Assembly (NCBI GenBank): GCA_963716985.1
Contig: OY970323.1
Coordinates: 448,001-512,000 of the forward strand
Direction: 5' to 3'
DNA: 64,000 bases
DNA from: an uncultured bacterium
GTDB lineage: Bacteria > Chlamydiota > Chlamydiia > Chlamydiales > SM23-39
Under the pieces are notes generated by a model, which saw nothing but the letters and a program-made list of their open reading frames with translations, was not told where the DNA came from and did not search any database. The position numbers and the translations under genes were made by a program. Shown here in pieces: positions 51,347 to 63,067 of the stretch (its first letter is position 1; each line of letters starts with the position of its first letter).

Positions 51347-52949
51347 GATACCGCTCCTTTTAAAAAAGGAACAGTATACTAAATTTTAGACTTGTGTGTA
51401 AGGATCAGGGCAAAGTCAGGGCTTTTTTCCAAGAGGGATTGGAAAATAGTACAGATTTTTGTTTAGGAACTAAATAGTAAGGGGGTTGGAGCACTCTCTA
51501 TCAAGTTTTTTCTTGAGTCGAGATCATAAAGAATTTTATACGCACTTATGACCAAAAAAAACGCTAGTTTTGCAATTCCCTCTTATGATATGATTTTTCA
51601 ATGAAGATTCACTTCAAGGTTCTCTATGGTGGAAAAAAGAGCTGGTAAAATTAATGAGGATAGTTTTTTTTTGCGAAATTTGCCACTTTTGAACTTCACA
51701 ATGAAACTTTTTCCTGACGAGGACCTTAGTTCAGTATATGTGATTTGTGCTCAGCATCTTGTGTCAACCACATATTCCCTTTTTCATGCATTATTAAAAT
51801 TAGGTCTTAAAGCAGAGAATTTATCAGCGATTGGAAAATGTTATTCAACAGATCCTATGGCTTACGAAGAAATGAAAAAGTTAGGCATAGATGTCTGCGC
51901 TTCTAGTTTGTCGTTTAAAAGTCATCGATCTTTTGATGAACAATATCGAGAGAATGTTAAAGAATTCATTAAAAAAAGAAAAAAAAAGCTGATAAACGAT
52001 AATTTTGAAAAGATAATTGTTCTTGATGACGGCGGAGAGTTGATTTCCGAAATTAGGCCTTTCATAAAAAAGAAACAGAACGTAATTGGAATTGAGCAAA
52101 CTAGTTCAGGATTTCATAGATTACAATTAAAAAAAATTGATTTTCCAATAATAAACGTTGCTCGTTGTCCTGCAAAACTAAACTATGAATCTCCTATAAT
52201 AGCTAGGATTGTTGCTAACACATTGGTTGACTATATTGAGAGTCTTCCAATTCAACCAAAAGAAGTGCTCATCATTGGAAATGGACCAATTGGATCTCAT
52301 ATCGACAAAGTCCTTAGGGATACTTATAATGTCTCTACTTTTGATAAAAATGTTTCAAGAAGTTCTATCAGAAAAAAAGATTTTGAAAAATCGTTAAAAA
52401 ATTTTGATTTAATTATTGGATGTACAGGGAAGGGCACGCTAACGCCAAAACATTATCAAATGCTTAAAAAAAATGTTGTTTTGGTGAGCGCTTCTAGTTC
52501 TCTCGACTTTGCAACTTTTAGCGGCTTAGTTCAGGCCGCCTGAAGCACTCGTCTTACTATATCATCCATCCAATCCACCATTTCTGGAGTAATATTTTCC
52601 ACGGAAGGGGTGATTTTAGCCTTCCCGGAAATTAAATTATCCCTCCATATTACCATGCGCACGGCCCTCAACATATCGGAAAATGTGACGTGCTCTTTTT
52701 GGTGCCAAGCAGTTGCCTCTACCTTAAGCAAATTTACCTGTCCCAATCGATTTGCCATTAGGCATACGCAACTATATAACCCCATCAGTATGGGGGTCGA
52801 TCGGGCTATTGCTCGATCCGACCATTGCCGCTGGGTCTCTACGCCAAGATGTTCACGTGTTTCCTCGAATGTGGTAAGCGTCTAATCTAGCCATCTTTTT
52901 TGTTTTCCTTCGTCATGGCACTCTGGTTTTTCTTAACCAAAGGAGTGTT

Positions 52950-53264
52950 ATGCCAAGACCGTTCCCAGAAGAAAAAAGACGCATCTGGCAAGAAAAAGTG
53001 CAAACGCAACGAATTAGCGGATTAAGCATGGCGCGTTGGTGTCGTGAGCAGCAGGTAAATTACAATTCTTTCCTGTATTGGGATAAGCGCTTCCCTGAAA
53101 AATCTCAGATAACACGCGACTCTTTTCAAGAGCTCTATGAAGAAACTAAGACGGACCCAGGCGTTGCTATCGAATGTCAGGGAATGAAAGTTGTTCTATT
53201 AAAATCATTCGACCCAGTCGTTTTGGCTCAATGTCTACAAGTTCTCAAGGCACTGCCATGCTAA
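52950..53264 (+). CDS. tnpA: IS66 accessory protein TnpA
   Basis: W...V..Q..SGLS...WCRE..V....F.YW HTH pattern. Confidence 0.88.
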   Translation: MPRPFPEEKRRIWQEKVQTQRISGLSMARWCREQQVNYNSFLYWDKRFPEKSQITRDSFQELYEETKTDPGVAIECQGMKVVLLKSFDPVVLAQCLQVLKALPC

Positions 53265-53587
53265 GTCTGCCTGCAAACGCCCGCCTGTTTTTGTGTCGCG
53301 CGCCTGTCAGTATGCGCAAGAGCTTTGAAGGTCTGAGCATTCTCGTCGAACAATTGTTCCCCGGAGAGCTCTTGTCCGGAGCTCTTTTTATTTTTCTAAG
53401 CCGACGCAAGGATCATATGAAGGTTCTCTACTGGGATGGTGATGGGTTTGTCATTTTTTATAAGCGCTTGGAAAAAGGTTCTTTTATTCCTCGGGAAGGA
53501 ATGACATCAACGCTGCCAAGACGTGAATTTTTGATGCTTTTGGAAGGGGTCGTTCCCAAACGATTACAACCTCGGTTTTCTCTATGA
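53258..53587 (+). CDS. tnpB: IS66 accessory protein TnpB
   Basis: PVSMRKSFEGL, LFIF..RRKD..KVLYWDGDGF...YKRLEKG.F. Confidence 0.93.
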   Translation: MLSLPANARLFLCRAPVSMRKSFEGLSILVEQLFPGELLSGALFIFLSRRKDHMKVLYWDGDGFVIFYKRLEKGSFIPREGMTSTLPRREFLMLLEGVVPKRLQPRFSL

Positions 53588-53653
53588 AAATAATTCGACT
53601 TTTCGTGCATTTTTCTCTTCTTTTTTTAAAGGGTTTTTGCTATCATTTTCTCT

Positions 53654-60722: not shown

Positions 60723-62688
60723 GGCTATTCGTTTAATTTCGTCCAGTTGGTAGCTTAAGCCGCCTGCTTTTCCATGCCATTTTTTGCCCGTCTCTTGTGA
60801 TTTTTTCTGGGTCTCGGCAATTCCACCTTATCTAATAACCATGTGAACAGATCTCGAGGTTTTTGTTCGAAAAACCTTTCTGCCGCAGTAGTGCCATCCG
60901 CTCGTCGTATAAAAAAATTGTGCAACACTGTTAAGACCGTGAGTGTATGTGCAGTCAATCGCCGAAATGCATGGAATTTTAATGACAACTGGCCATTTCT
61001 ACCCTCCACACATGAGCTCGATCGTTGAAAAATTTGGGCGCATTCCAAGGCTCTACGCCACCATTCTACCTGCATAGAGCAATTTATTCCGCCCCATAAC
61101 AGATTCTGTTTGAGGCCTTCTTCCAATTTGCGTAAAGTTGTCTTTATCGCTTCTTTTCGGACCTTCTTTTTAGTTCTTTGCAAACAGAGCTTTAAGTACT
61201 CTATCGCAACAAGCTTCTCGAATAACTGCCCATGCCACTCATCTAGTCCCATAGACTTGATTTGGACTGCAAGGAAGGAAAAGAAAAAACACAGCACGGC
61301 AATCATAGAGAGCAGCGATCCCTTGGATTTTTCCAGTTTTTTCTTTTGCTTGTCTGTGCAATCAGCCTCTTTGGCTACAGTTTCAAGCGTCTCGTAGGCA
61401 GTCTCAATCTTCGCTTTAACCTCCTCTGGAGCCTGCTTATCTCCTGTATCTAAACTGAAGGGATGATAAGCATGAGTGATGGCTCGTCTTGCTTCCTGAG
61501 CCATTCTATACTGCTTTTCGGTTGCCTCTATTTTCTTGCGATTCGCTTTTTCCTCTTTTTCTATTTCAAGAAGCCGATTTCCCACATTTATCCCTCTCTT
61601 AGATAGCTCTTCAACCCCACCTGCACGTTTCAACTGATCTCCAAATTTATTCAACGCTTCAAGTTTTTCTTTTTGCAAATCCTCTTGTTGCTTCTTCACT
61701 TGCTGGACAGTTCTTGCCAAGTGGCTTGTAAGTCCCTTGGTGATCTCTTGTTGGACATGAAAAAGATCCGAGCCCTTTATGACGTTCAGTGAATGGGTGG
61801 CAAGTTTTTTGAGTCCTGATGCCTCATCTCCCACTAACTGATATAAAGTGACATTCAATCCCTTGAGAGCAGATTGCGTGACCTTATGCCAGGTCTCAGC
61901 ATCTCTTTGTTCTTCAAGCTGCTCTGCTAAAATATAGCCAGAGATCGGCTCCATCAAGATGAGAGTCATATCATCCATTATAAAGTTTTCATCAAGAGCT
62001 CCTGGGATGTTTTTATGTGGCATTTGTTTTGCAAGCCTTTCGAACTCTTCCTTCCCAAATACTGCCACCTGTTGGCCGAGCGTCTTGCAAACCTTCTGCA
62101 ATGCAGACTCAGAGGTCCCTACAAATGTGTTTATATCAACTCTTTCAAAAAAATCATGGAGCTCTGGAATACCGCTATTTCCATTCAGATGGAAATGCAT
62201 ACAAGTGGCTAAAACCATATTATGCAACCAGGTTTGTCCGGAGGGAGATTCGAAAAAATGTACGACAGCCGGATCTCGCCTTCCATTAAGTGCTTTCTTC
62301 CGATCGATCCAGTGTTGCAAGGAAGTTCTGGGAATGTTATATTTTTTAGCTAGATTGCGCTGAGATAGGCCTCTTGCTTCATCTATAACCTTAGCCTGCG
62401 TGGATCGACCGATGATGCAATATTTTCTGGGCTTTTTTGCTTCCGTTTGACATGCTGTTTCCATAAGGCTTGCTCTTTCTTTATTTTTTTGTCCAAAAAA
62501 ATTTTACTGAGCAAGTCCTTTTTATTTAAATATTTAAATGTCAGTTTCTGGAGAAATCAAGCTTGTGGGGAATCTCGGCAGAATCCTAGATAGCGTTCAA
62601 CAGAAAAGAATCCCAAGAGACGGGCAAAAAATAGCATGGAAAAGCAAGCGGCTTAAGCTACCAACTGGACGAAATTAAACGAATAGCC
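60723..62688 (-). mobile_element. DUF6399-type insertion sequence with ~80-bp TIRs
   Basis: TIR begins GGCTATTCGTTTAATTTCGTCCAGTTGGTAGCTTAAGCCGC; 8-bp TSD GGAAAATA. Confidence 0.92.
60755..62464 (-). CDS. DUF6399-like putative DDE transposase
   Basis: N-terminal HTH, ALDENF, VGDEA, DLFHVQ, QRSSSCVEGRNGQLSL, HNF..R.DGTTAAERFF. Confidence 0.85.
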   Translation of the reverse strand: METACQTEAKKPRKYCIIGRSTQAKVIDEARGLSQRNLAKKYNIPRTSLQHWIDRKKALNGRRDPAVVHFFESPSGQTWLHNMVLATCMHFHLNGNSGIPELHDFFERVDINTFVGTSESALQKVCKTLGQQVAVFGKEEFERLAKQMPHKNIPGALDENFIMDDMTLILMEPISGYILAEQLEEQRDAETWHKVTQSALKGLNVTLYQLVGDEASGLKKLATHSLNVIKGSDLFHVQQEITKGLTSHLARTVQQVKKQQEDLQKEKLEALNKFGDQLKRAGGVEELSKRGINVGNRLLEIEKEEKANRKKIEATEKQYRMAQEARRAITHAYHPFSLDTGDKQAPEEVKAKIETAYETLETVAKEADCTDKQKKKLEKSKGSLLSMIAVLCFFFSFLAVQIKSMGLDEWHGQLFEKLVAIEYLKLCLQRTKKKVRKEAIKTTLRKLEEGLKQNLLWGGINCSMQVEWWRRALECAQIFQRSSSCVEGRNGQLSLKFHAFRRLTAHTLTVLTVLHNFFIRRADGTTAAERFFEQKPRDLFTWLLDKVELPRPRKNHKRRAKNGMEKQAA

Positions 62689-62851
62689 GGAAAATATCAG
62701 CGATGTTTGTTCAACAGTCACACTTATTTTAGAAAATCCATCTCCTGATTTTGCATATCAAACAGGACCTTTTTCTGAGAGAACGGCAAAACATTTTCTT
62801 AATTCTAATGCGTATCAGGAAGCATTAGAAAAATATCAGAAAGATCTGAAC

Positions 62852-63067
62852 CTATGATAGTCTTAGAATTTGTTCCGAATGCTTTTTGGCATGCAAAAAG
62901 AAATAATTATATCGTCCATTATCAATCGGCCTTGGATGTTTCAATTTTTTTAATCTATTATTTGTTGCTTCGAAAAATAAATATCCATTTTTCTTTAATA
63001 TTTTTACAATATCTTCAGATTCATACCCGCACTTATTGCACCATTCCTCACAAATTTCTATAAAGAT
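62852..63067 (-). pseudogene. 3' fragment of an FkbM-like methyltransferase cut by IS copy 3
   Basis: IFIEI...W...GY...DI...LKKNGY..F...NYFF pattern; frame enters from the IS end at 63068. Confidence 0.6.

Follow-up and report, generated by a model that had tools for sequence, protein, structure and literature searches.

An AHCY-fold protein family set apart from SAH hydrolase, met in an IS-broken island of an uncultured chlamydial bacterium and in variable gene cassettes elsewhere

S-adenosylhomocysteine (SAH) hydrolase, also written SAHH, AHCY or AhcY, is described as being among the most conserved enzymes, and the loss of adenine from its 3'-keto intermediate is one of its side reactions. 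Complete conservation among SAHHs is claimed for its Gly-His-Phe gate (PMC4647836), which is given as an AHCY feature elsewhere (PMC13406329) and is cited as a shield for the unstable 3'-keto intermediates (PMC10978960). The SAHH fold has also been put to use in a small-molecule cluster, that of angustmycin, where the dehydratase AgmF works by NAD-dependent oxidation and elimination (PMC8599513; see also PMC11188666). Here, a gene with this fold is analysed in a 64,000-nucleotide stretch, called the window, from an uncultured bacterium of the Chlamydiales lineage SM23-39 (contig OY970323.1 of assembly GCA_963716985.1, positions 448,001 to 512,000). It heads an island with a methyltransferase, a cupin and a short-chain dehydrogenase/reductase (SDR), in which several genes are broken by insertion sequences (IS).

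Two further systems lie close to this locus. The cupin belongs to PF06172, the family of yeast Cff1 (YML079w), which is needed for 4-hydroxy-5-methylfuran-3(2H)-one (MHF), a mimic of autoinducer-2 (AI-2); most of the Cff1 homologues tested complement, and MHF is thought to be derived from sugar (PMC8092285, PMC13267403). The window cupin scores above the threshold of PF06172 and shows the HPEGG and FHR motifs; for Cff1, the parts of these papers at hand report no operon with an AHCY-fold enzyme. The second is the CqsA/CqsS system of Vibrio, with Lqs of Legionella, whose type of membrane sensor domain recurs in kinases beside relatives of the AHCY-fold protein.

The gene lies on the plus strand in two pieces, the N-terminal 292 codons at 51626..52501 and the C-terminal 107 codons with the stop at 56803..57126, the latter 64% identical to residues 295-402 of the intact homologue P0005. 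An IS701-like element cuts it within the Ser-Ser-Ser/Asp-Arg-Glu-Phe loop that replaces the AHCY gate. Joining the pieces yields 399 aa without stops, while joins offset by 1, 2 or 5 nt stop at aa 293-303. A search with the N-terminal piece returned 511 proteins among 1,965 candidates, mostly intact and 370-420 aa long, and a 51-sequence profile gathered 1,277 clusters at 50% identity (E up to 1e-30, distant relatives included). Judged on the predicted structure of P0005 (pLDDT 90.8), the protein is a member of a separate family with the AHCY fold: the model aligned with AHCY at Z 34.0 (rmsd 3.7, 364 aligned residues) against 15.2 for the next fold, and the top Foldseek rows were all SAHH or SAHH-like. 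On the ahcY models, P0005 scored 40.4 against a cutoff of 497.6 (TIGR00936) and 36.2 against 275 bits (NF004005). In a quick tree of 142 rows, a branch of about 5.6 substitutions per site, with support 100, separated the family from four chlamydial AhcY sequences. A housekeeping AhcY was rejected on these scores and this tree, and a D-2-hydroxyacid dehydrogenase on Z values of 14 or less for such enzymes; the sequence-only reading, made from the letters of the window, had likewise kept the protein apart from both. By its sequences, the family is a large sister group of AHCY that falls outside AhcY and SIHH (the archaeal S-inosylhomocysteine hydrolase) and lacks the gate His of AgmF. The altered motifs recur in more distant relatives, from Legionella and Streptomyces plasmids, which lie outside the 142-row tree. 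The literature search, whose coverage left out subscription papers largely and supplements wholly, found no description of the family, and in the ESM Atlas it matched only hypothetical or AdoHcyase_NAD clusters.

Residues were counted over 186 aligned sequences in the HHalign register, with AHCY residue roles taken from PMC4647836, PMC10978960 and PMC13406329. At about 19% identity, the family shares with AhcY/SAHH (TIGR00936, archaeal SIHH included) the two-domain fold, the NAD-type Rossmann site, whose glycines are kept in 186/186, and the equivalents of H55 (184/186), D131 (184/186), T157 and K186 (186/186 each). The ligands of the 2'-hydroxyl are altered conservatively, E156 being Q in 183/186 and D190 being E in 186/186, and N181 is A in 185/186. 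In contrast to SAHHs, the three positions of the Gly-His-Phe gate read Ser-Ser-Ser in 185, 184 and 183 of the 186 sequences (His301-Phe302 to Ser-Ser in 184 and 183). N80, which lines the homocysteine channel, has become K in 185/186, and Arg182 is gained. The adenine ligands Thr57 and Glu59 have no equivalents, the HxTxE(Q)/HxExK site reading H-[LI]-[LV]-x-[TS], and there is no AhcY-like C-terminal tail. The H353 loop has no clear equivalent in a region of uncertain register, where the HHalign register was preferred to one that aligned NCGFP with the AHCY GHP loop. This pattern of residues points to a conserved enzyme whose sugar chemistry would be AHCY-like and whose 5' pocket and base pocket would be different. 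The sequence-only reading had rightly seen that the fold motifs were kept and several substrate or catalytic positions changed; the decisive losses, the gate His-Phe and HxTxE, had escaped it.

Gene neighbourhoods were compared over 78 genome loci (80 kept of 108 confirmed), 80 of 174 metagenome loci and 2 loci from a viral collection, which were merged at 90% identity, with pieces under 300 aa dropped, into 132 clusters, 85 of them with good flanks. Neighbours were detected with profiles built from the same loci, at cutoffs set by the analyst. The labelled loci belong mostly to Chlamydiae, the candidate phyla radiation (CPR), DPANN and Rickettsiales according to submitters' labels, some of which are probably wrong. 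Within 5 kb of the enzyme were found EamA transporters in 27 of the 132 clusters, FkbM in 24, the HemK-like enzyme in 24, an outer-membrane barrel recognised by eye in 18, an SDR in 14, and the cupin and NUDIX in 9 each; any of five methyltransferase families was present in 45. The neighbourhood link is thus real, and the cassette is variable and mainly chlamydial. Homologues do keep a neighbourhood, as had been expected from the window, but the set of four genes is a cassette that varies and belongs to a single, mostly chlamydial clade. Methyltransferase, cupin and SDR come together in 3/132 clusters, and numerous members from archaea and CPR are solitary or adjoin regulators. A metagenome contig (L108) carries the window's five genes intact and in the same order at 47-67% identity, and in two other loci (L002 and L140) the four core genes are present in a different arrangement. 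The enzyme also occurs together with SDR, EamA and methyltransferase genes on pSn, a plasmid of Simkania negevensis that was typed as conjugative.

Across 200 other genomes of the phylum, a strong match to the enzyme was present in 23, one of them a more distant relative and one partial. The FkbM subfamily occurred in 11, in 8 of these within 2.5 kb of the enzyme, a figure biased by a profile made from linked copies, and the HemK-like enzyme in 6 (2 linked, 1 at a contig end, 3 unlinked). The cupin was found in 4 of 200 chlamydial genomes, the host included, twice beside the enzyme and once beside SDR and methyltransferase genes at a contig end; the cupin-linked enzyme members do not form one clade (approximately unbiased test, p-AU 2e-45). 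MazG-like neighbours were discounted because they ride with a Mutator transposase. A defence system was considered as well, and PADLOC gave no match for the AHCY-fold protein, only generic methyltransferase matches; as for a phage gene, annotated phage records held none apart from two weak ahcY matches, and two IMG/VR loci resemble a Rickettsiales gene pair. A family of multi-pass membrane proteins of about 500 aa (L007:6328-7845 and relatives), with no Pfam match and several members ending in dileucine-like motifs, was also met near the enzyme in 10/132 clusters.

Such islands are mobile accessory units that likely make and export a small methylated or redox-tailored molecule, possibly a signal. 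The chemistry that is tentatively preferred here is that of an NAD-dependent lyase, which would break down SAH or a similar ribose compound; its five-carbon product would be tailored and exported with the help of the neighbours. The enzyme would bind NAD and a ribose ring and oxidise C3 (K186, E190, T161), and the C5 substituent would then be eliminated (H46, D137), like in the first half-reaction of AHCY. With neither gate nor adenine clamp, resealing and rehydration of the intermediate to adenosine would not take place and the base would be released too, so that SAH from the adjacent methyltransferases would become a furanone or dicarbonyl of formula C5H6O3. Where NUDIX and N-glycosidase genes are in the locus, AMP or ribose-5-phosphate may serve as alternative substrates for the same product. 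The mass balances are consistent with this, as SAH minus homocysteine and adenine, AMP minus adenine and phosphate, and ribose-5-phosphate minus phosphate and water all leave C5H6O3, which is also the formula of MHF. A Cff1-type cupin, the SDR and the methyltransferases could tailor the product, EamA and MFS transporters could export it, and in other lineages CqsS-type kinases or LuxR-type proteins may sense it. The proposed net chemistry, from SAH to adenine, homocysteine and a C5 product, is that of the Pfs and LuxS route to AI-2; that route uses two enzymes of unrelated folds, whereas a single NAD enzyme is hypothesised here, and 22/23 family-bearing chlamydial genomes are without Pfs, which also makes S-ribosylhomocysteine unlikely as the substrate.

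The two functions proposed in the sequence-only reading, modification of a nucleoside or small metabolite and recycling of SAH, stand as rivals of the lyase. The lyase and an SAH hydrolase would likely share SAH as substrate and differ in their products. That the family is a strongly diverged true SAH hydrolase, clearing SAH for accessory methyltransferases while cupin, SDR and transporters serve the methyltransferases' own substrate, is a reading nearly as probable as the lyase. It would account for the adjacency or fusion of the enzyme to at least five unrelated methyltransferase families, a trait shared with AhcY, and for the invariant core catalytic H, D, T and K. Moreover, metK, ahcY and Pfs were not found in the host genome, where the sole PF01048 match (38749-39582) is an AMP nucleosidase and therefore not a Pfs, and ahcY and Pfs each occur in just 1 of the 23 family-bearing genomes. 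Yet this overlap is about what chance would give, and a complementary distribution with ahcY or Pfs was dropped as a proof of SAH clearance. All three enzymes are missing from 147/200 chlamydial genomes, which therefore appear to need none. Chlamydia is reported to handle SAH by export through an EamA-type carrier (PMC3104491), and the host has a core EamA, 38% identical to one in reduced genomes (f4/g24); the island EamAs had no BLAST match to the core EamAs compared, CTL843 not being among these. The family also lies outside the methyl cycle, since metK is present in 5/23 of its carriers and in 22/22 genomes with ahcY. Many members have no methyltransferase nearby, the HxTxE/HxExK site is absent, and the gate that is missing here holds a His that is essential even in AgmF (PMC8599513).

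Links to methyltransferases and nucleotide enzymes bear on a further alternative. Four kinds of methyltransferase are fused to the enzyme (L038/L152, L178, P0122, P0139 and P0140, the motifs of the last two being read by eye), and the HemK-like type in P0139 and P0122 resembles the window's methyltransferase. A NUDIX domain is fused to it in P0257 (by eye). NUDIX together with a gene of the NDT/MilB/TIR fold adjoins the enzyme in one clade and lies within 5 kb in 7/132 clusters, directly upstream in five genome loci; the latter gene had no match in the PDB sequence search, and its assignment comes from a structure match (Z 11.0, rmsd 3.3, 113 aligned) with a model of pLDDT 72.7, one of five models being confident. 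HD nucleotidase, ThyA and cytidine deaminase genes are other neighbours in relatives. These partners, like the AgmF precedent (PMC8599513), would suit a nucleoside-tailoring enzyme that dehydrates, epimerises or dephosphorylates its substrate with the base kept, the island making a methylated nucleoside analogue exported into the host. Distant Streptomyces relatives stand with methyltransferase, phosphoribosyltransferase (PRTase) and HAD phosphatase genes; the altered base contacts would suit a methylated base, and the gained Lys73, Arg182 and Ser run could bind phosphate. This reading is nevertheless unlikely. AgmF keeps both histidines, H299 of the gate being essential (PMC8599513), and sits with adenine phosphoribosyltransferase, phosphatase and phosphoribosyl pyrophosphate enzymes; it was set apart from the family by its description rather than by a sequence comparison, and a small-molecule role like that of AgmF is for the family a proposal. 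The window's island has neither phosphatase nor PRTase, partners vary widely between clades, and the CqsS and LuxR neighbours would be left unexplained. On Streptomyces plasmids, an operon (L200:7275-15032 and L201) was seen in which GNAT, a distant gateless AHCY-fold gene, an unknown gene, methyltransferase, PRTase and HAD phosphatase follow each other, with a B12 radical SAM gene in one of the two; it looks like an undescribed nucleoside-type cluster.

In Rickettsiales-like genomes and one gammaproteobacterial genome, the enzyme adjoins kinases with a CqsS-type sensor domain (HHalign 98.7%), which match an unannotated Vibrio kinase at 31% over 406 aa. The domain was called CqsS-type because that Vibrio kinase stands opposite a gene to which the model for alpha-hydroxyketone synthases gives 695 bits; a PDB sequence search gave no match for it, and the ESM Atlas nothing named. 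Of five genomes searched, four hold 2-4 of these kinases apiece, with no match above 34% to the Vibrio synthase. As in CqsA/CqsS and Lqs, a CqsS-type membrane sensor is present, but no CqsA-level synthase was found in those incomplete metagenome-assembled genomes (MAGs), and its position is filled by the enzyme, a methyltransferase or a cupin. A divergent LuxR-type gene stands at four chlamydial loci, one of two matches per genome, and in 22/132 clusters the 5-kb surroundings include a gene for a kinase or for a LuxR, AsnC or TrmB regulator. At another locus (L217, G204:C7), a methyltransferase, a CqsS-type kinase and a response regulator matching PDB 6sy9 (194 bits), which is probably LqsR, are consecutive genes; a distant AHCY-fold homologue lies 3 kb from them, and a synthase of the CqsA type is absent. 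Elsewhere (L056 and L058; L098:7067-10165), a LuxR-type gene lies between two different divergent AHCY-fold genes, and a 1293-aa chlamydial protein (L088:4162-8043) with a distant AHCY-fold domain and ankyrin repeats adjoins a kinase with an ETR1-like sensor.

Such regulators could mean that the family is a metabolite-sensing module, with catalysis secondary, in which binding of SAH or NAD(H) is relayed to a kinase or transcription factor. P0121, in which the enzyme is fused directly to HisKA-HATPase-receiver and the membrane sensor is absent, would fit this, as would the cNMP-type domains of L175 and, by eye, P0122. For the L053 enzyme and the cytoplasmic part of its kinase, a predicted complex scored 0.59 against 0.00 for the best control, with runs agreeing on at least 96% of contacts and partner pLDDT of at least 86. 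The mark used was reached by 116/157 solved and 2/215 mismatched pairs, and values of 0.60 or less included only 18/157 solved pairs and both mismatches, so that the prediction lends weak support to a complex. The sensing module is all the same very unlikely, as catalytic residues are invariant across the 186 sequences and the window's clade has no adjoining regulator; P0121, seen in one cluster only and with its motifs altered, might have arisen by deletion.

Several observations also weigh against the lyase and its signalling product. None of the tallied neighbours was seen in 42/132 clusters (16/85 with good flanks), and the cupin is near the enzyme in so few of them (9/132). Members of the methyltransferase and FkbM subfamilies are met in the absence of the enzyme too (G093, G097, G115 and G153), and tree-aware pair tests, with 5 independent pairs only, did not reach significance. 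A single ancestral event may lie behind the kinase link, for which one clade was not rejected (p-AU 0.80), and the LuxR link is one change on the tree. The receptor genomes being incomplete MAGs, the absence of CqsA is not established in them, and neither the window, nor the continuation of the island, nor the surroundings of the window's own clade hold a receptor or CqsS-type gene. Base release would leave NADH in need of reoxidation, a step that we infer, and the lost adenine contacts would fit a base-free or modified-base substrate equally well as SAH.

The host genome is a single contig of 2.07 Mb with 44.4% GC, 99.5% complete, and the closest named homologues of the window are chlamydial. 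The island has 33.6% GC, a value as low being found in only 0.05% of the 1-kb genome bins, and its patchiness, AT-richness and plasmid location in Simkania bear out the AT-rich unit and the horizontal acquisition proposed from the sequence. The gene order, too, is the one first described, namely AHCY-fold protein, HemK-like methyltransferase, DUF985 cupin and SDR, with a convergent EamA-FkbM fusion, and the gaps of 12 nt before the methyltransferase and 20 nt before the cupin are as tight as stated. The HemK/MTS-like class I methyltransferase (57139..57819, plus strand) is an intact ORF of 226 aa, below all named NCBIfam cutoffs and 66% identical to its L108 orthologue. The cupin (57840..58352, plus strand), intact with 170 aa, passes DUF985/Cupin_5 at 118.4 bits against a cutoff of 25, which agrees with the earlier assignment, in which the membership in the Cff1/MHF family was missed; its motifs align with PDB relatives, the yeast protein not being among them (this concerns the E44/H96 equivalence). 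The SDR does not follow directly, since a second, intergenic IS701-like element (58388..59909, minus strand; target-site duplication, TSD, AAAGGA) and a 65-codon duplicate of the cupin C-terminus (59916..60113, plus strand) intervene. The duplicate is 63% identical to the cupin (dN 0.26, dS 0.58) and absent from the intact L108 copy.

The classical SDR, 257 aa overall, is split on the plus strand into an N-terminal part at 60110..60722 and a C-terminal part with the stop at 62697..62857, matching the C-termini of the L002 and L108 SDRs. Between them lies an IS with a DUF6399 transposase and 84-nt inverted arms (60723..62688, minus strand; TSD GGAAAATA). The convergent piece on the minus strand (62852..63067), which overlaps the SDR end by 6 nt as had been noted, comprises the C-terminal 71 codons of an EamA-FkbM methyltransferase fusion that the sequence-only reading did not recognise. 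The FkbM gene passes the PF05050/TIGR01444 cutoff (66.6 against 22.7 bits for the larger piece in the host genome; orthologues also pass). A third IS701-like element (63068..64000, plus strand) splits this gene and extends past the window end, beyond which further IS701 copies interrupt the rest of the fusion; genes for a third methyltransferase, for an MFS transporter and for two membrane proteins come next.

The IS701-like element in the AHCY-fold gene (52502..56797, minus strand, DDE_5 transposase) is flanked by the TSD GTTCT, with the second copy at 56798-56802, and hosts a nested IS66 element (52874..55640, plus strand; 7-bp TSD GAATGTG). As claimed, excising each IS at its TSD leaves stop-free AHCY-fold and SDR genes. 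The IS701-like, IS66 and DUF6399 types have 12, 6 and 4 near-identical full copies elsewhere in the genome. The arms of the DUF6399 element (60723-60806 and 62605-62688) contain the 3' end of its own transposase gene, and its 4 identical full copies have 8-bp TSDs. Upstream of the island, an IS4/Tn5-like element sits inside an old IS701-like remnant (49827-51409) and carries a MITE-like palindrome of about 200 nt (50970-51183), with 28 near-full BLAST matches in the genome at about 93-94% identity among the rows listed. Further upstream (45114-47120), two short RelE/HigB-type toxin-antitoxin-like genes, recognised by eye, precede a tandem duplication of about 700 nt (about 76% identity) of a frameshifted gene. 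A second small island of the host (G000:C1:66000-70500, L215) has two methyltransferase-like genes, an island-type EamA and a HemK-like paralogue, the AHCY-fold gene being absent.

Among the core genes, only the methyltransferase and the cupin remain as whole ORFs. Since AHCY-fold, SDR and EamA-FkbM genes are IS-split, the window's copy is probably a dead, recent pseudogene island and the pathway off in this genome. The broken AHCY-fold pieces keep 45/45 highly conserved family columns, and island genes differ from orthologues at dN 0.20-0.31 with dS 1.8-3.1 or saturated; these values point to past purifying selection and to breaks that are probably recent. In two DNA sequencing runs, coverage was mostly on IS elements and no joint across them was seen, and the search of sequencing runs listed no RNA run with the island. 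The idea that ORF callers miss the gene did not hold, as the caller found a 305-aa N-terminal piece (P0001) and intact homologues are common in databases.

An IS-broken copy is by itself ordinary genome decay, and the value of the locus lies in the family and its intact clusters. A large family with a rebuilt gate and base pocket is currently annotated as 'hypothetical' or as plain AhcY, and such annotations are unsafe at least. In its widest form, the proposal is that host-dependent microbes (Chlamydiae, Rickettsiales, CPR and DPANN) use this one enzyme, independently of LuxS, to turn SAH or ribose-5-phosphate into a signal, either an AI-2-like furanone or an alpha-hydroxyketone. Orphan CqsS-type kinases and LuxR solos would perceive the signal in some lineages, and chlamydial islands would methylate it and send it out to the eukaryotic host. 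This is quite unlikely as a whole. If such a diffusible signal were nevertheless made, it would provide a signalling chemistry for symbionts and ultra-small microbes without a known autoinducer synthase, suggest a ligand for orphan CqsS-type sensors and offer a source of substrate for Cff1 cupins.

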